The notes under the pieces: generated by a model
Databases searched by the model: none
What the model saw: only the letters and a program-made list of their open reading frames with translations
What the model was told of the DNA's origin: nothing
From: Octopus vulgaris
Lineage: Eukaryota
Length of the DNA stretch: 64,000 nucleotides
Assembly: GCA_951406725.2 (NCBI GenBank)
Contig: OX597825.1
Coordinates: 36,518,001 to 36,582,000, forward strand
Direction of reading: 5' to 3'
Position numbers and translations under genes: made by a program
In this document: positions 3,809-46,605 of the stretch, one piece after another
How the letters are laid out: every line of letters starts with the position of its first letter
How positions within the stretch are numbered: the first letter of the stretch is position 1

Positions 3809-3951
3809 AACTTGTTTTTCAATTATTTTAATCAGCCGAAATTACTACGATGATCCGGTTCTTGACTGAAGACTGAGGGTTTCGAATGTCCTGTCCGTGT
3901 TTATTGTGTCGTCTTCTAAGAGTTATACGTTCTTGTCCATGTTGTATTTTT

Positions 3952-6412: not shown

Positions 6413-6489
6413 AGCCTTTAATCTTCAGTCAAGAACTGGATCATCCTCGCAATTTCGGCTGATTAATCTTGAGATTGCTCCAATCTGGC
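6413..6489 (-). ncRNA. Non-circularly permuted hammerhead ribozyme, family P2 second copy (truncated third copy at 3828-3882, +)
   Basis: gcaaU-C-tcaaga...agcc-GAAA-ttgc...tcttga-CTGAAGA-ttaaa-ggct. Confidence 0.75.
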
Positions 6490-6693
6490 CAGCCCCAAGG
6501 AAAAACTAAGCTAAGAGCATTAAATTCCTTGGAAAAAAGCTTCGAATGTCTACGAAACAAGAACAGAAAAGCGGACGATGTTACACGAATATAAATACAA
6601 AAATAATCCGAAAAAACAATAATAATAATAACAGGACATCACAACAGGCGTCATATACATATATATATGTATACATATGTGTGTGTGTGTGTG

Positions 6694-22492: not shown

Positions 22493-23820
22493 CTGTACTG
22501 GGAGAAGAAGAAGAAACGAAACGAAACGGAACGAATCGAATCGAATCGACGCGAAGGCGCTCAGTCATACAATAGTGTAATAAATAAAATATATGCATAC
22601 ATACATATATGTACGTACCTACATCTACATGTATATATACATGCATATATAAATATATATACGTGAGTACAGGACACCACAAATAGACGCAGAACTCAAC
22701 GAGAACGAAAACGTAAAAACAAGCATGGAACGAACCTTTTAAACACGCTGGAGTTGAACTAGGGACAGCTGATGAAGGGGATTTTTCCTTGTGTAGTTTG
22801 TCTAGTACTCTGTTTTTCTTTGTAAAAAAAAGGTTCGTTCCATGCTTGTTTTTACGTTTTCGTTCTCGTTGAGTTCTGCGTCTATTTGTGGTGTCCTGTA
22901 CTCACGTATATATATTTATATATGCATGTATATACATGTAGATGTAGGTACGTACATATATGTATGTATGTATGCATATATTTTATTTATTACACTATTG
23001 TATGACTGAGCGCCTTCGCGTCGATTCGATTCGATTCAGTCCGTTTCGTTTCGTTTCTTCTTCTCCCAGTACAGTTTTATATATAATTATGACGCGAAAC
23101 CCTATACCTCTTTGCTTAACCTTCCCTTCTCTCCCTTTCTCTCTCTCTCTCACTCCTCCTTATCTCTCTCACAGCCGTTTGTCTTCCTCTATCTCTCTCT
23201 CTCTCACTCCTCCTCATCTCTCTCACAGCCGGCCAAATATTTCCTTTTGCATGCGGCCTTCTAACTGTAAACACACGGTTTTCTTGCGCTCCTTGAATCT
23301 CTCCTCGTCTAGGCAAAAAAGGTCCTCTTTTGTTGTTTTCTTGTGTGTTTTTATTTCTTGTATTGTATTTTTTTGTAATTGTATTTTTATTTTGTATTTT
23401 ATTTTGTATTTTATTTTGTAATTTTATTTGTATCGTTTTTACGTCCTGTTTGTGTCACATTTTGTTCTTTCCTTGTTTTTACCCCTCTGCGAGGTAATCT
23501 CCTTTAATTTCTTCGTAGGAAGGGCTAGTTCGACGAGTCGTGTTCTGTCCTCACCTTCGAAACACGCTGGAGTTGAACTAGGGACAGCTGATGAAGGGGA
23601 TTTTTCCTTGTGTAGTTTGTCTAGTACTCTGTTTTTTCTTTGTAAAAAAAAGGGTTCGTTCCATGCTTGTTTTTACGTTTTCGTTCTCGTTGAGTTCTGC
23701 GTCTATTTGTGGTGTCCTGTACTCACGTATATATATTTATATATGCATGTATATATACATGTAGATGTAGGTACGTACATATATGTATGTATGTATGCAT
23801 ATATTTTATTTATTACACTA
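22490..23820 (+). mobile_element. Non-coding Penelope-like element: inverted segment plus tandem pseudo-LTRs (period ~819 bp)
   Basis: 22490-22740 is mirrored at ~22828-23078; 22741-22996 is repeated at 23560-23820. Confidence 0.8.
23525..23600 (+). ncRNA. Non-circularly permuted hammerhead ribozyme, family P1 (5'-truncated copy at 22741)
   Basis: cgtgU-U-ctgtcc-tca-ccttc-GAAA-cacg...ggacag-CTGATGA-a-gggg; outer helix ctagttcgac/gttgaactag. Confidence 0.75.
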
Positions 23821-29098: not shown

Positions 29099-31990
29099 TC
29101 ACGAATGCTTTTTAGCAACTGCCATTTGGCTCATGAGAGAGTTCGATGCAGCTGCCCTCATCTGCACCTCCTGCCGTGAAGTTGGTTCATCCGGGACACC
29201 TGACAGGAAGAGATCCAGTCCTACTTTAAAGACATCTGCAGCCACCCCATGCAGGTCCCTCAGGTTCTTCGGGAGGATATTGAAGAGCTGTGGGACTCTG
29301 AAGCCCAGGCTATCACAGTATCTTGTCCTACATCTTGATGGTAAATTTGGAGTCCTTGGCACCACGCAGTGGCGCCCAGTTCTGGCATTTGTGTAACTCT
29401 CGATGCCAAAGTTTGGGACAAGTCCTCCCAGGATCTTCCAGATGTATATTATGGCATATCTTTCTCGCCTACGCTCCAAGGAATAGAGTTTTAATCTCTT
29501 GAGTCTTTCCCAGTAGCTTATATGTTGCACAGAGGCTATCTTCTTCGTGTAGCTTCGTTGACCATAGCTGAGAGCAATAGTCAAAGTGGCTTAGGAAAAG
29601 TGTCCTCCAGAGGACCATCATGGTTTCTTGGTCTCTTGTTCTAAAGGTTCTAAGAATCCATCCGGCCAGCCGTCTACATTTCATTGCCAATTTAGCAACA
29701 TGTACATGAAAGATTGCGTCATCACTCATGTAAATACCCAGGTCACGCACAGATTGTGCCTCTGGGATTGCAATCCCTCAAGGTCCAGTGTATTCTTTGG
29801 GTATTGCATTTAGTTTTGCATGCTGATAGCATAAAGCTTGAAACTTTTCAGCATTGAACTGCATGCTATTCTTTTCAGCCCACTTGTATATTTTGTCCAG
29901 CTCACATTCCAGGTGCTTAGTGTTATCAGGGTTCTGTATTGCCTGTGAAACTTTTGTATCATCTGCATAACTTGTGATCGTGGCTCTCTGCGTGGCTGAG
30001 GGCATGTCTGAGAGGGCCATTATGAACAGTAGTGGTCCCAAAACAGTGCCCTGCGGAACACCGCTCACTATTTGCGTGTTAATGGAAGTGGCCCCATTGG
30101 CTACTACCACCTGACTTCACCAGCCATTCTCCCAATTTTCCAACTATGCCAAGATCACGCAGTTTGTGACATATCATTCCATGATCGACTTTATCAAAGG
30201 CCTTTGCAAAGTCGAGATATATCACTTCCACATTTGAGTGGTTGAGCAGTCGTTTCAGCACCCAGGCATAGTGTTGTAGGAGCTGAGTTAAACAGCTTCT
30301 CCCTGGTCGGAAACCATGTTGGGTGTCAGGCCGCAAGTCATTTTCTTCAAGGAAGGTGATTAGTTTCCTTCTGACTATTCGTTCCATGACCTTGCTGATG
30401 TGTGAGGTCAGAGAGATAGGTCTGTAGTTCTTGGCCTCCGCTCTGCTGCCTCCTTTATGAATAGGGCATATTTTACCTTCCTTCAGTTTTCTTGGAAGTT
30501 TGCCAGTTGCAAGGAAGCTCTGAAAGAGGAACTGCAGTGGTCTTGCTAGGACTCTCTTACATACTTTTAGAAGGATTGCCGGGAATCCATCGGGGCCAGT
30601 AGCTGAGTTTGTTTTCATTTCATCTATAGCCTTTATTACATCGTCTTCCTTTATGTTGATGTAATCAATCATCGCTGCCTCTGATTCTATATCTGCAGTG
30701 GTAAAGAAGTCAGTTAGATTGCTGATTTGGAAATGCCCAAGGGGTGGAGTGAAAACACTCTTGAATTGCTCATTTAGTATTTCACTTACCCTCATTGGAT
30801 TTCCTGTGAGTGTGCCATCCTTTTCAAGGAGTGGCCCTATCCTACAGTGCACCGTAGCTGTAGAAAGCTCTGGGGTTAGATTTTATGTTGTCTATAGCCC
30901 AGGCTTCTTTGTCTGCTCTTTCCTTTTCATGGGAGAGTTGCAGACATTTTTCAATTTTCAACAGTTTTATTTTCAGGCGGGACTTTTCACTGCTTTCAAT
31001 TTGTTTGTTTAGGCGATTTGAAACTTTTGTACGCCGTCTCATTAGAATTTTCCTCTCTCTGGGGATTTTGTTCTTGTGTACAGTGGCCTTTCTCTCTGGG
31101 ACACATTTGTAGCATATGGCTTGCATTACAGACATGAATTGTTGAAGTTTCATGTCGATGTCTGGCGAGGAGAGACATTCAGGCCAGTTTTGTTTGAGGA
31201 TCTTTCTCAACTTGTTTCCAGTTTGCCTTATGGAAGTTCAAGCTGGAAAGATTCTGAGAGTTTCTTGTAGGCTGCATGTCCATGCTTTCCTTTGGCCCGT
31301 ACATGGTCAGCTCTACCATGTTGTGATCCGAGAGTAGTGTCGGTGTCACTTTCACATTATGGATGAGATCCATATTATTTGTGAAGCAGAGATCCAGTAT
31401 GTTACCTGCCCTGGTTGGTTGGAGTATTACTTGCTCCATGTACAGGGTGTTGATGAGGTTCAGGAGGGACCTTGCCTGTCCTCGTTCACATCCTGTCATT
31501 CCTGGGAGAGAAAGGCCCTCGGGCCATCTGACATTGGGTAGATTGAAGTCTCCCATAAGAAGTACACTTATGTGTTGTTCTAATGTGACTAGAACTTCTA
31601 TTTTTATAAGGCAGTCTTCAAACTTGCCTACATGGCTTGGGGCATCTGGAGGGCGATATGTAGCACACACAACTACACCAAGTTGCCTTATATGTACAAT
31701 TAGTGTGTCACACAACGAGTTTGAGTATGACAAAAGGACCTGGGGTGTGAGGTCCTCACGGATGTACATAGCAACTCCTCCATGACTCCTTTCTTTTCTG
31801 TCGGTCCGTAGTACAACATACTGTGGTATGTGCAATTTCGCATCTGCTATGTCTGGTTTCAGGTGTGTTTCCGTAAGTGCTATGCATAAGGCTTGATTGC
31901 ATGCAACAAAGTCTCTCGAGAACGGGATTTTTGTCCTATCACTGAGTGTTAGCAGTCCTCTGATGTTCAGTAGGAGCATCGAGGTGAGGT
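29099..31990 (-). pseudogene. LINE ORF2 (APE endonuclease-reverse transcriptase), split by several frameshifts
   Basis: APE motifs LLLNIRGL, IALTETHL, YRPP, MGDFN, LDL, SDH; RT motifs NYRPISLTS, QHGFRPGRSC, YLDFAKAFDKV, GVPQGTVLGPLLF, YADDTK; C-terminal LKLYSLERRRERY. Confidence 0.92.
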
Positions 31991-32857
31991 GTATGCTGCT
32001 GCCGGCGGTGTCCACCTTGGGTCTATTTGCTGTGGCAGTCTTGTGTATTGTGGATAGTCCCATCTGCGAGTTTGAGTTTGATGGAGCCAGGTTAGCTGCT
32101 GTACAATCTTTTGTGCCATGCACAAAAAAGATTCTTGTTCAGCAGCTGCCATTTCAATAACATGTTGGCGGTTTGTAGCACGCACCACATCTGCGTACCT
32201 CCGTTTTGGGGCAGGTGGTGCGTGGTCCATTCCTTTTCCTTTTGGTAGTTGGTTTCTGACCTGTTTCGAGTATATGTGGCAGGGTCTTTGATGTGCAAAA
32301 CGGCAGTCTGCACCTTCCTCTCCATGCCAGCAGACACCTTTCATGTAGAATTTACATATTCGTGTGCCCTGTCTGTTTCTATCCTTTTTGGTACATGGAT
32401 AGTCAGGTTTGCTTCTATCCTTGGCTGTTTCATCTTTTGTTCTTCTTTAAGTTTTTCCTCCTTTTATTTCTTTTTTGGCTCTTTCATCTCCATGGCTTTT
32501 GATGCTGGTAGGAGCACTTACACTTGGGTTTACTTCCCGGGCAGGTTTCTCACTTGAATCTTCTTCCTGGATGTTTACCAAGTGGGGGTGACATCTTTCA
32601 TCAGCACCCGCGCCTTCATCCTTGCCATCTTTACTTTGTTCGTTGTCAAAGATGGCATCAAGCGTGCCAATGTGAGATCTTATGAGTGCATAGGAGCGTA
32701 TAAACTCCTGCTTTTTTCGGTCTATCTGCGCTATCGTTCTTTTATATCCACTGCTCTTCAGCGCAGCTGCAATTATGTTGTTCGGATTATCTCCGTCGGA
32801 GCATTGCCAGGCTCTCAGGAACAACGCCAATTCGTTACTTTTCCAGGTTCTGGACAT
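31967..32857 (-). pseudogene. LINE ORF1 with N-terminal Myb/SANT-like (trihelix) domain and CCCH zinc finger, frameshifted
   Basis: TWKSNELALFLRAW...IAAALKSSGYKRTIAQIDRKKQEF in 32447-32857; CKFYMKGVCWHGEEGADCRFAH (C-x7-C-x8-C-x3-H) around 32290-32360. Confidence 0.65.
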
Positions 32858-33137
32858 TTTTGATATTTTATTTATCTATCTATCTAATTATATTAATTTA
32901 TATTAATTTAATAGTGCGATAGAGGGTAGAGAAGAAATAGAGAAAGAAAGCGGCTATGTATTTAAAGAGAGATTGAGAGCTGAAAGAAGATAAGAAGAGA
33001 GTAATGAAGAGACAAGGAAAGGCGTGAGGGAGAGAAGTGAAGAGACAGAGAGAGAAAGAAGAAATAGAAAATGAATATATATCTGTCCGTAGCTACAGAC
33101 TATTTCTTCTAAACTAAACTAATTGCGACTATACTTC

Positions 33138-39277: not shown

Positions 39278-39284
<7 letters not shown>

Positions 39285-39895
39285 TTAATTAAGGGTTCAG
39301 CAACAATTTACTTCACCACACACCGAATTTAGAAATAGCAGTCAAGAAGTTTTGGCTATTCTTTCTACTTAAAAGGGGGATCCCAGTAAAACCAAAGCAC
39401 TTAAAAAACAAACGACGCAGGCAAAAGAGAAAGAAATGACGGAAATCATTCTATATTAAGTTACCTACGGACGTACGTTTCGGAATCAAGTCATTGTAGA
39501 GCATAAAAATTAAATAATTATGTCTTACCTGACTATTTTCCTCCTCAGCGTAGGACTCTTCAATTATAAATAATTGCGTCTCAATTATTAATAATTGTGT
39601 TTTAAATTTGAATGCACTAGAAGACATCACCTCAACTCATGGTATCAGAGCGAGCGTAAGCCTTACCAGTACCACCGAATTCAAAGGTAACTTAATAGGG
39701 CACTTAATATAGGTAACTTAATATAGAATGATTTCCGTCATTTCTTTCTATTTTGCCTGCGTCGTTTGTTTTTTAAGTGCTTTGGTTTTACTGGGATCCC
39801 CCTTTTAAGTAGAAAGAATAGCCAAAACTTCTTGACTGCTATTTCTAAATTCGGTGTGTGGTGAGGCAAATCGTTGCTGAACCCTTAATTAATTA
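39278..39895. repeat. Inverted repeat (~188-bp arms, ~240-bp spacer containing an HHR)
   Basis: 39278-39467 is mirrored at 39710-39895. Confidence 0.92.
39464..39554 (-). ncRNA. Type I hammerhead ribozyme, canonical core
   Basis: cctacg-CTGAGGA-ggaa...ttcc-GAAA-cgtacg-TC-cgtagg; GUC cleavage site, palindromic stem III. Confidence 0.88.
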
Positions 39896-40016: not shown

Positions 40017-41303
40017 CGAGGGGCGTTCAATAAGTAATGCCCCTGACCCACTTCCCATAGCAGTAGAGCAACGAAACTTGGCACAGGTATTAGTCTTTTT
40101 CTACATAGGAACAACCCAGAGGTACGCATTTCTCCCATCGTTTGATGCAGTTCTGGAGACCGTTTTCTTAGAAGACCCCAGCTTGGTCCTCCAACCACGA
40201 CGTGACTTCAGAAATCAAGGCTGCATCATCTGGGAAACGCTTTCCTTTCAAAAACAACTTCATGGCTGGGAAGAGGTGAAAATCAGAGGGTGCAAGGTCA
40301 GGAGAGTAGGGGGATGGGGGAAGAGTTCATAGCCGCACGCCTGTGCTTCTGATCTGGCGACACGCGAGTTGTGGACCGGAGCGTTGTCCTGCAGGAGGAG
40401 GATGCCTTTGCTGATCTTGCCCCGCCTCCTGGTTTCGATAGCTTCTCTTAATTTCCTCAAAAGTGAAACATGATAGGCTCCTGTAATTGTGGTACCCTTT
40501 GCCAGGAAATCTGTCATCACTACTCCGTCCTGGTCCCAGAAGACTGTGAGCATGACCTTGCCAGCGGAGGGCTGCACCCTTGCCTTCTTTGGAGGAGGTG
40601 AGTCATGGTGCTTCCACTGCATTGACTGGGCTTTGGTCTCTGGATCATAGTGATGGACCCAGGTCTCATCCTGTGTAATCAGTCTTTTGAAAAATTTTGA
40701 CTCATCTTCTTGGCAAATCCCTAAATTCTTGCTTCTGGAATTCTTGCGTTCTTGCTTCTGGAAAAGTGTGAGCAACCTGGAAATCTATCTGGCAGACACC
40801 TTTTGCATATGCAAATGGTCATGAATGATAGTTTCCACAGACCCGGTACTAATCTTGACCTCATGGGCTATTTGGCGAATAGTTATGCGTCGATCTTCCA
40901 AAATGGCAGCCTCAACTTGACGGACAGATGCCTCATCAATGGCAGAAGGGGTGCGACCAGATCTGGGAGCTGTTTCCGCAGAGTTCCGACCATGTTTGAA
41001 TTCACGATGCCAGCGTTTTACAAGGTCATATGATGGGGCATCATCACCATAAGTTACTTTCATTTCATTAAAAGTCTCCTGTGGTGTGCGTCATTTCAAA
41101 TACAAAAACCGGATCACTGCTCGACACTCAACATGCTCCATTTCCCACTTGACTCATTTCAAACACCTGTAAATCAGAAACCACAATTCGTTCGGAGCTG
41201 TAATTTGCCACTTAATCTATAGAGATATCAATAATTGCACATGCACAATAATTGCACAAACAAAGGCAAGTGGGTCAGAGGCATTACTTATTGAACGCCC
41301 CTC

Positions 41304-41681: not shown

Positions 41682-41758
41682 AGCCTTCAATCTTCAGTCA
41701 AGAACCGGATCATCCTAGCAATTTCGGCTGATTAATCTTGAGATCGCTCCGATCCGGC
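41682..41758 (-). ncRNA. Non-circularly permuted hammerhead ribozyme, family P2
   Basis: agcgaU-C-tcaaga-ttaatc-agcc-GAAA-ttgct...tcttga-CTGAAGA-ttgaa-ggct; outer helix gccggatc/gatccggt. Confidence 0.75.
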
Positions 41759-42819
41759 CAGCCCCAAGGAAAACCTAAGCTGCGAGCATTAGATTTCTTG
41801 GAAAATGGATCGAATGTATACGAAACAGGGACAGAAAAACGGACGATACCACACGAATATAAAATACAAAAAACAAAAATGGTAAAAACAGGACAAAAAC
41901 AGCGGGTGTCTTACGACTAATAGACAGTACAACTTAGTTTAGCTGGCGTATTTGCCTTTCTCGGCAGACGAAGACAACAATCTTCTCATGGCGCTGGTTT
42001 AGCAGTATTGCTCGGCTCGTGCGTTCTATGCACTCGCGAATTAAGCTAAACTTGGATGAAGTACAATCAAAATTCAATTATTTTGGTTTTAAAATCAAGC
42101 ATTTAATGCCCTCTATTTTTGCGCTTATGTGTTCCATTTCCTCAATAGGAAGTACGTAGAAACGTTTCATAAATTTTTGTTGATCAAATAATTGCATTGT
42201 TGAATTATTCTTTTAGATCAGTATTTCTCAACGGGGATTTCAGGGGAGAGTTTCAGGGAGTCGCTGGCGATGTATCGTGATGATCAAAAATCCGGCCTGC
42301 TAAAATTTGGTTAAAGTGATTCAAACTGCAGACTCAACGCAAAATGTTCACATTTAATTCAAAGCGTTAAAAATGTTATGAAAACAATTGGTATGTGTTC
42401 AAAAAGTTCAAACGATTAATACAAAAAAACCCTCCAGGCTACATCCCGAAAATTCATTTCTTTGCCGAATTTCTATAACGTTTACGGCGATTCGTTTTTA
42501 TATCTTGATTTTTTATTTTTCATGCAATCTACGCATGCTTGCAGGCATGGTGAACACAGTTCACGTCAAACAGCTGACTGAGTAAAGTTCACAATTCAAT
42601 GCATGGGATAAGGCCTAAACAAACACATTATCGATTTTTGCACTTGCGAGATGAATTTCGGAACAGAAATAGCGCAGTTCAATTTTCATTCGCCTAAACT
42701 TTAAGTGACCCATTTTTGGTGGCTCTACGGTTTGTTGGCTAGGAGGAGATGTGCCGGGAAGTTAAACACACAGACACACACACAGATACACACAGACACA
42801 CAAGTTGGGTTTTATATAT

Positions 42820-43458
42820 ATAGATATGCATACGTGGGCACAGAACGTCATGAAACGTGTACAACAAAAAAGTACGAAGCACGAGTACATGGAACATGAA
42901 TTATTCTTTCGAACAACGAAAGACACAAATGGAAAACAAAACAAACAACATTAAGAACGAAGCTTCATCGGTTGTTGGTTGCTTTTCTAGTCTCGTATTT
43001 CGAACATTTAACAACAATATACGCTTTCGATAAAACAGTTGCTCCCGCAAAGGAAATTAAATAAAATTTTGGATTTTGCGGAGGGTCAAAATAGGTAACA
43101 CAAACAGGACAGTGAAAACAAACAGGAAGGGCTGCTAAGCCTAAACAAGGTTGTGGTGGCGAACGCGTAAATCAAGCTAGGACAGGCGACAAATAAGAAC
43201 ACGTTTCCTTTTTCCAGCTACAACGGAGAGAAAGAAAGAAAGATGGCCGATGGTCACGTGGGAGACACTTGACTGAGGGAGAGAGAGTGACAGAGTAATA
43301 GGATAGAATAGTGGGAGAAGAGGAGGTAAAAGAATAAGAAAGAGAAAAAGAGAGAAAAACGAAAGAGTAAAAAGATCGTATAACGTGCGCATCAGAATTA
43401 TAAAGATAAAACTTACTTGGAAGACGATGCGTGGCGTTCAATCATATAATAATATAAA

Positions 43459-43529
<71 letters not shown>

Positions 43530-43715
43530 TATGTGGGCACAGGACGACATGAATCATTTCCAACAAAGAAGTACGAATAGTACATGAACTATTCTTTCGA
43601 ACAACGAAATACACAAATAGAAAACAAAACAAACAGCATTAAGAACGACCATTCATCAGTAGTTGGCTGCTTTTCTAGTCTCGTATTTCGGGCATTTAAC
43701 AACAATATACGCTCT
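42820..43715 (-). mobile_element. Non-coding Penelope-like element with tandem pseudo-LTRs (period ~690 bp)
   Basis: 42825-43025 is repeated at 43525-43713; each copy carries a rearranged HHR. Confidence 0.78.
43648..43712 (-). ncRNA. Non-circularly permuted hammerhead ribozyme, family P3 (second copy ~42961-43035)
   Basis: cgtaU-A-ttgttg-ttaaat-gccc-GAAA-tacg...caac(t/a)a-C(T/C)GATGA-a; each copy has point lesions. Confidence 0.68.
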
Positions 43716-45493: not shown

Positions 45494-45566
45494 ATTGCTT
45501 CTTCAGTCAGAGTCTGGAATGTCCAAGTAGTTTCGCCCAATCCTCTCCGATACTACTCGAAACCAG
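45494..45566 (-). ncRNA. Non-circularly permuted hammerhead ribozyme, family P4
   Basis: ttcgagtagU-A-tcggag-agg-attgggc-GAAA-ctacttgga...ctctga-CTGAAGA-a-gcaat; 9-bp stem III, 6-bp stem I. Confidence 0.72.
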
Positions 45567-45930
45567 TCGGGCTGAGGGCTTAAGCTGAAGGCCCTGAGCA
45601 AGGCATACGAATGTGCATATAGAAACACAAGGAAATAACAAACAGAAAGTGTTTTTCGATTATCGGACGAACTAGAATTATACATATACAATGGACAAAA
45701 GCCTTTCGGCTATATAACAAAAGAAAAATAATTATACAATTACAACAGAAATAAAACAAAACAGAGTCTTTCGACTATCAGACGCGTGTAGGAAGCTAGC
45801 GAAAGTAAAATGGAAATGGAAGAAATCTTCCCTGACCGGGTGGCGGAACAAAACAGATGCGACTGACCTCATAGATAGATAGATAGATCGATCGATCGAT
45901 CGATAGATAGATAGATAGATAGATAGATAT

Positions 45931-46462: not shown

Positions 46463-46605
46463 TATTAGAGACAAAACCACTATTTTGTAAAACAAACAAG
46501 GAAAGACTTAATCAATACATAACATTTTTTATTAAAATTTTATGTATTGATTAAGTCTTTCCTTGTTTGTTTTACAAAATAGTGGTTTTGTCTCTAATAA
46601 TATTT
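46456..46605. repeat. Short palindrome (~67-bp arms) between TA tracts
   Basis: AAATATTATTAGAGACAAAACCAC...GTGGTTTTGTCTCTAATAATATTT. Confidence 0.9.

Follow-up and report, generated by a model that had tools for sequence, protein, structure and literature searches.

A predicted core-split, reverse-order hammerhead ribozyme near the 3′ end of Penelope-like repeats in Octopus vulgaris

The window analysed here is a stretch of 64,000 nt from Octopus vulgaris (OX597825.1:36,518,001-36,582,000, assembly GCA_951406725.2, forward strand). At six places in it the parts of a hammerhead ribozyme occur in three blocks, named S (III′-UH-I′), G (GAAA-III) and C (I-CUGANGA), and at all six, as read from the position rulers, these run in the order S-G-C. 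Upstream of the blocks, except in P3a, lie a strand X and the 5′ strand of a helix Pi. The coordinates of sub-parts were read by hand from the rulers and not computed; strict-descriptor sites are those matched by a descriptor that demands the block order, five pairs in stem I and three pairs in stem III and does not require stem II. The features are as follows.

3828..3872, plus strand: P2-type copy with its 5′ end about 6 nt past the predicted cut; retains II′, GAAA, III, I and CUGANGA
6422..6494, minus strand: P2b motif, laid out as P2a; strict-descriptor site, predicted cut 6473/6472
P2b parts, minus strand: X 6494-6489; II′ 6462-6457; GAAA box 6456-6453; I 6434-6429; CUGANGA box 6428-6422
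22572..22998, no strand assigned: inverted P1 piece, forward copy and full unit, the last being that which holds the 23519-23594 motif
23506..23602, plus strand: P1 motif, strict-descriptor site
P1 upstream strands, plus strand: X 23519-23523; Pi 23525-23534 with 23572-23581
P1 S block, plus strand: III′ 23539-23542; U16.1 23543; H17 23544; I′ 23545-23550; predicted cut 23544/23545
P1 G block, plus strand: II′ 23554-23558; GAAA box 23559-23562; III 23563-23566
P1 C block, plus strand: I 23582-23587; CUGANGA box 23588-23594
P1 possible closing helix P0, plus strand: 23506-23513 with 23595-23602
41691..41763, minus strand: P2a motif, strict-descriptor site; predicted cut 41742/41741
P2a upstream strands, minus strand: X 41763-41758; Pi from 41757 with 41712-41705
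P2a kink-turn GA pairs, minus strand: 41749-41748 and 41714-41713
P2a S and G blocks, minus strand: III′ 41747-41744; I′ 41741-41736; II′ 41731-41726; GAAA box 41725-41722; III 41721-41718
P2a C block, minus strand: I 41703-41698; CUGANGA box 41697-41691
42965..43044, minus strand: P3b motif, decayed, with U4C at 42970; predicted cut 43018/43017
P3b parts, minus strand: X 43044-43040; II′ 43006-43002; GAAA box 43001-42998; I 42977-42972; core 42971-42965
43653..43713, minus strand: P3a motif, 5′-truncated a few bases before the predicted cut 43706/43705; CUGANGA box 43659-43653
45500..45572, minus strand: P4 motif, strict-descriptor site; predicted cut 45551/45550
P4 upstream strands, minus strand: X 45572-45567; Pi 45566-45563 with 45517-45514
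P4 kink-turn GA pairs, minus strand: 45558-45557 and 45523-45522
P4 parts, minus strand: I′ 45550-45545; II′ 45540-45535; GAAA box 45534-45531; I 45512-45507; CUGANGA box 45506-45500

The two P3 copies fail the strict descriptor because they are decayed. P3a is without X (the upstream stem II strand) and without the 5′ strand of Pi; P3b has the altered core listed above, unlike the majority of its family, in which the core is intact. Near P1 an inverted piece (22572-22740) is joined to a truncated forward copy (22734-22775, core at about 22769-22775) that begins about 9 nt past the predicted cut, and this partly tandem, partly inverted layout is typical of Penelope-like insertions. The window also holds a broken CR1/L2-like LINE, whose translations show fragments of an APE endonuclease and an RT (29099-32875, minus strand), Mariner-like transposase fragments between inverted repeats (40260-41090, minus strand, with 39282-39467 and 39710-39895 nearby), and a long near-perfect inverted repeat, or hairpin (46464-46598), which Rfam miRNA models match below their thresholds.

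The strict descriptor returned four S-G-C sites in the window, with H17 at 23544 (+), 41742 (−), 6473 (−) and 45551 (−), and no window match for any of the other five block orders, including SCG, CGS and GSC; three shuffled versions of the window gave no S-G-C match. The non-circular S-G-C order of hammerhead parts, claimed in an earlier note on this DNA, is borne out at every one of the six places. With the same descriptor 200 kb of arbitrary genome yielded no SGC and one type-I match, and a similarity search there yielded three decayed copies of the motif. A descriptor requiring stem II directly after CUGANGA matched nowhere in the window, and an Rfam scan of the window placed no hammerhead model among the best 150 of 309 matches, those 150 being only of miRNA type and driven by microsatellites. 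The earlier note had also proposed searching the genome for this strand order: a pattern of GAAA with CUGANGA 18-28 nt after it has 41,588 matches genome-wide against 7,618 for the reversed control, an excess of about 34,000.

For the tests of individual stems, 181 pattern instances were reduced to 127 with a paired S block, these to 39 clusters, and the clusters to 30 representatives, nine having been dropped (seven truncated or deleted upstream, one mis-parsed and one not this motif). The catalytic-core boxes CUGANGA, GAAA and UH stand at the junctions of stems I and III, the U4C of the P3b copy being the exception, but core conservation is partly built in because the instances were picked by core pattern. 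Stems I and III keep pairing with different sequences across families, and for each of them none of 2000 permutations over the 30 subfamily representatives was as stable in duplex energy, although these counts, like those for the other helices below, overstate independence since the representatives belong to a few related superfamilies. The claim that both stems pair despite differing in sequence therefore stands, as covariation among families that are not fully independent. The description of the families as four unrelated ones does not hold for P1 and P3, which are related through a further family, P5 (L030), that aligns with P1 (69% over 195 nt) and with P3 (72% over 304 nt). P2 and P4 are alike in spacing, yet gave no significant alignment.

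Stem II had been regarded as the weakest element and placed after CUGANGA; its partner strand lies instead upstream, as strand X, which usually stands 19-26 nt upstream of U16.1 and starts with a G opposite C11.1 of the strand before GAAA. Counted from C11.1, the pairing of X with II′ reaches at least five Watson-Crick pairs in 21 of the 30 representatives and at least four in 26, compared with 0 and 4 of 30 when a region of the same length downstream of CUGANGA is used instead, and with 5% and 10% of mismatched pairs (n = 782). As judged by duplex energy none of 2000 permutations of the representatives was as stable as X/II′; for a downstream stem II 866 of 2000 did at least as well, so that this pairing does not stand out from that of mismatched families. 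There are nine distinct perfect 5-bp X/II′ pairs, every one of which opens with G-C, and only through X is stem II closed by G10.1-C11.1. X is accordingly predicted to be the 10.x strand of stem II, with the chain open between A9 and G10.1, a position that falls outside the six published permutations. As the stem II partner strand lies upstream, the motif is not plain type SGC. A reading as plain SGC would form stem II from the bases after CUGANGA with one extra base and make X an anti-ribozyme off-switch. P1 and the majority sequence of P3 can indeed form four downstream pairs with one extra base, two of them wobble, and the A9/G10.1 step accepts an extra base both in natural hammerheads (PMC3705267) and in the published SGC descriptor, where it is a U (PMC10085705). 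We nevertheless consider that reading improbable, as downstream pairing never reaches five Watson-Crick pairs and in several representatives amounts to one, in nearly all families X reaches no further than a G opposite C11.1 and leaves GAAA uncovered, and the true stem II strand sits at the X position in the nematode CSG forms described below.

The outer helix P0 was not supported as a family-specific helix in the O. vulgaris genome (357 of 2000 permutations as good); in the minimum free energy (MFE) fold of P1 both G8 and A9 are drawn into it. One more S-G-C family, a divergent one that has an upstream stem II strand of its own (L120, about 2948, minus strand), lies too close to a locus end to be part of the quantitative set. 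In another repeat (L202, L205 and L297; G000:C1:651537-651576) GAAA stands before CUGANGA with a partial stem I, and the split model does not fit it.

X runs into the 5′ strand of Pi, the 3′ strand of Pi runs into stem I, and the other end of Pi joins stem III; none of 2000 permutations of the 30 representatives was as stable for Pi in duplex energy. What had been described as an extra helix extending stem III is thus a separate bridging helix, joined to stem III in P2, P4 and the Naiad by a kink-turn-like loop. A kink-turn consists of a 3-nt bulge followed by tandem G.A and A.G pairs beside a canonical stem. Its canonical signature stands, by sequence, at the III/Pi junction in 14 of the 18 short-spacing representatives (P2, P4 and Naiad) and in one of the 12 long-spacing ones (P1, P3 and P5), ten of the latter having a non-canonical GA/GA loop; shuffled linkers carried the signature in 0.5 of 30 on average and in 4 of 30 at most. 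With a kink at this place Pi could turn back and lie alongside stems III and II. In MFE folds of P1 and P2a, Pi and III are present and X, II′ and most of I′ and I are unpaired; those of P3b and P4 are different structures without the Pi and III arrangement.

The alternative to folding as a monomer is a domain-swapped dimer, in which the hairpin loop of one copy would pair with X and I of a second copy in a tandem transcript. Dimers have been proposed for the minimal hammerheads of other Penelope-like elements (PMC4209133), tandem arrays and partial tandems are common in the octopus families, and P1, P3 and P5 are without the canonical kink-turn. Moreover, in one published Naiad (supplement part 19, PMC8557442) Pi is almost continuous with stem III, a near-straight helix that a monomer could hardly fold. 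The conserved kink-turn signature of P2, P4 and the Naiad, on the other hand, suits a monomer folded back on itself, and published SGC ribozymes cleave as single motifs over the same distance with linkers down to 0 nt (PMC10085705), so that we regard the dimer as unlikely and the folded-back monomer as the better reading.

All the motifs sit in dispersed repeats with a (TA)n terminus and a variable degree of 5′ truncation, at a distance of about 90-150 nt from the 3′ end. A first look at the genome gave 1,714 candidate copies of P1, 1,911 of P2, 2,560 of P3 and 305 of P4. Identity among the best 40 of the 1,714 P1 candidates is 97-100%, and P1 is a young family with a tandem period of 790 bp; P2 forms tandem arrays of units of about 830 bp, besides inverted or partial-tandem insertions. 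Neither a Penelope-type ORF nor one with an N-terminal GIY-YIG and a C-terminal RT was found within 1.5 kb upstream of P1-P5 copies. The insertion layout matches that of Penelope-like elements (PMC8557442), and P1-P5 are non-coding Penelope-like repeats; the Penelope-like hosts suggested by the earlier note are supported by the partial tandem and inverted copies, the (TA)n ends, the 5′ truncation and the lack of an ORF. The P2 unit (L021:1434-2263) is also represented in a second organism (run X16) by many variant contigs, with peak depth over the ribozyme core.

Two candidate hosts were rejected. A GIY-YIG fragment lies beside P5 in L030, but the SGC motif is absent from 29 of 30 loci of that Poseidon-like family, and the loci inspected by eye have at their end a minimal type-I hammerhead of the ordinary kind; this contact is therefore chance nesting. 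The Poseidon-like family (2,235 candidates; L055, L059, L066 and L074) is older, with its type-I hammerhead about 150-250 nt past the GIY-YIG ORF and an extra A between A9 and G10.1. A young, intact Penelope-like element of 781 aa (RVT_1 then GIY-YIG) has a 3′ end without the SGC motif and is therefore at most a trans-acting candidate. Its family (L271-L276 and L282, e.g. G000:C16:20835000-20842500) has many intact ORFs, RT then GIY-YIG, plus an upstream ORF; its terminal repeat carries a minimal type-I-like hammerhead, by eye a U3-A8 core variant, and its 3′ region tandem promoter boxes of CCAAT/TGACGT type.

Copies starting directly after (TA)n were tabulated relative to the predicted cut. 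For the P2 group, in which sites were counted by eye among 100 of 7,051 matches, the 27 distinct listed sites comprise 6 that lie at the cut as far as the TA run allows them to be placed, 19 in the next 10 nt and 2 in the preceding 19 nt, so that 25 of the 27 start at or just after it. Minus-strand start counts, in which each listed site appears once and whose three anchors catch non-identical subfamily sets, were 957 (control 9) in the 30 nt spanning the cut, 87 (control 6) in the 30 nt upstream of X and 472 (control 104) in the 30 nt before CUGANGA. Expressed per base there are about 80 starts at or just after the cut, 3-4 before it and at most 12 further downstream. Among the 29 listed sites of the P1 group one lies exactly at the cut, 22 after it and 5 before it, with one unclear: the same side bias as in the P2 group and no peak. 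This pile-up of 5′ ends is in keeping with run-off of reverse transcription at a 5′ end made by self-cleavage and is indirect evidence of cleavage in vivo; TA microhomology near the cut could bias the junctions and is a partial alternative. The functional ribozymes proposed in the earlier note thus have indirect support, from this boundary and from the covariation of the stems. A depth step near the cut in one sequencing run was not reproduced on the matching subfamily; contigs span the site, and contigs being all that was available the observation is uninformative.

The same truncations bear on whether the motif could be a conserved RNA of hammerhead origin that is non-catalytic and serves, for example, to bind the RT or to make it pause; the 5′ ends would then reflect stalling and TA microhomology. 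Most truncations, above all in P1, do fall at TA-rich bases past the cut, and eight of nine vertebrate retrozymes tested failed to cleave in vitro (bioRxiv 10.64898/2026.07.22.740005). Against this, the catalytic bases and the UH site all keep their right place at the junctions although the stems change, and in the P2 group 6 of the 27 listed sites start at the cut and few extend past it, even though TA steps also occur upstream of X. We therefore judge a non-catalytic RNA very unlikely and prefer a ribozyme that would cleave itself.

Canonical hammerheads have been reported absent from Naiads, for which eight ‘half cores’ are listed (Craig et al., 2021, PMC8557442). The 54 published Naiad consensus sequences were inspected by eye in windows around CUGANGA; the counts are lower bounds because motifs split by line ends are missed and not every CUGANGA was displayed. 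On this basis at least 16 of the 54 carry either the split form or type CSG. The split form is present in at least ten (three from Acropora, two from Octopus, two near supplement part 12 and single ones near parts 9, 19 and 25); outside the cephalopods several of these have a P0 that starts right after A9, with a hairpin between P0 and X. At least six nematode Naiad consensus sequences are complete type-CSG hammerheads by eye, and in these the 5′ strand of stem II precedes Pi, S and G, that is, it takes the X position. Neither form was seen by eye in the CUGANGA windows of bivalve Naiads. Several arthropod Naiad 3′ ends (File S5, parts 16-19) have CUGANGA after a C run and GAAA 50-90 nt away; by eye they match neither form and are possibly further wirings. 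In the O. vulgaris genome (G000) a 20-nt motif of the octopus Naiad has 301 exact matches (0 for the control), and these copies share the architecture and spacing of P2 and P4; those Naiad copies that were examined have decayed, and no Pfam match was obtained for their fragments. Naiads and P1-P5 have in common (TA)n targets and a motif near the 3′ end, but P1-P5 are without an ORF, and their possible link to Naiads lies in the shared ribozyme architecture, not in sequence homology to the Naiad 3′ end.

Our interpretation, which we hold to be probable, is that the motif is a core-split, reverse-order hammerhead near the 3′ end of Penelope-like elements, cleaving as a monomer after H17. The predicted order is [P0] - II - Pi - III′ UH I′ - linker - II′ GAAA III - Pi′ - I CUGANGA - [P0′]. 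The interpretation draws on features read in the sequence, namely the block order, stems I, II (via X) and III, Pi, the kink-turn signature and the truncation pile-up. We suggest that Pi and III would fold first as one long hairpin, that the kink-turn would fold Pi back so that X and I, hanging from its outer end, could pair into the hairpin loop, and that the usual hammerhead core would then assemble within one molecule. Cleavage would turn multimeric transcripts into monomers. More speculatively, a (TA)n target may prime reverse transcription at the TA-rich 3′ segment, in which case run-off at the cut end of a linear RNA would give short copies beginning at the cut, and an uncut or circularised template might give full units, partial tandems and arrays. 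On balance we also lean, with less assurance, towards a broader proposal. In it the Naiad clade and the non-autonomous elements that depend on it, from cnidarians to cephalopods, would process their RNA by means of this seventh natural wiring, in which the catalytic core is open at A9/G10.1 and a kink-turn acts as a brace. Nematode Naiads would have a CSG permutation of the same ancestral reverse-order ribozyme, and the terminal repeats of retroelements would be the place in animal genomes where non-circularly permuted RNAs persist and change into one another.

If this is correct, non-circularly permuted ribozymes would move from anonymous metatranscriptome RNAs into animal genomes, in tens of thousands of copies and with a named host. 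The assumption of PMC10085705 that CUGANGA and its flanking stem strands are inseparable, which limited the permutations to six, would be broken, and the reported absence of hammerheads in Naiads would be explained. The clustering of insertion 5′ ends at the cut is also relevant to the role that hammerheads play in Penelope-like elements. In the literature searched, which did not cover subscription journals, we found neither type SGC outside Eckert et al. (2023) nor a report of permuted hammerheads in Penelope-like elements, and the accessible hammerhead literature, including PMC3088659, PMC10162972, PMC7936874 and PMC13725137, offered no precedent for a helix, break or active split at A9/G10.1.

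The S-G-C order itself is already published, and the earlier note was right to recall a precedent for non-circular permutation: type SGC (HRIMA-1 and variants) was described and validated by Eckert et al. (2023, PMC10085705) from metatranscriptomes only. Type SGC and the octopus motif share the S-G-C order, a 2-6 nt linker from I′ to II′, the full catalytic core and a helix that connects stems I and II at their outer ends, which is Pi in the octopus motif; in SGC-3, which was validated, this I-II bridging helix is needed for cleavage. The predicted split at A9/G10.1 is undescribed, and the octopus motif fails type SGC on one defining point, since in type SGC stem II follows CUGANGA directly (0-2 extra bases), whereas the 5′ end of the octopus motif is where its stem II strand is placed, together with one strand of the bridging helix. 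The published descriptors need CUGAUGA, then G or UG and a contiguous stem II, and would therefore miss the octopus motifs. The two also differ in source, type SGC coming from no genome of a known organism and the octopus motif being genomic, and in the kink-turn, whose signature occurs in P2, P4 and Naiad and of which the accessible part of PMC10085705 makes no mention for type SGC. Type CSG, known there from two metagenome sequences, has the same reverse cyclic order as the octopus motif; moving Pi′-I-CUGANGA from the 5′ to the 3′ end converts CSG into the octopus form, so that the two are one circular permutation apart, with the chain opened between III and Pi′ in CSG and at A9/G10.1 in the octopus form.

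As for the hosts, the octopus repeats resemble Penelope-like elements with type-I hammerheads (Cervera and de la Pena, 2014, PMC4209133) and non-LTR retrozymes (Li et al., 2026 preprint, bioRxiv 10.64898/2026.07.22.740005, in whose accessible text the models are of type I only) in having a hammerhead in a terminal repeat, tandem and inverted insertions and non-coding units of about 0.7-0.85 kb. Ordinary type-I hammerheads are also carried by two other Penelope-like families of the O. vulgaris genome. Unlike the octopus motif, the type-I hammerheads of those published systems follow the ordinary circular order and are nearly devoid of stem III.
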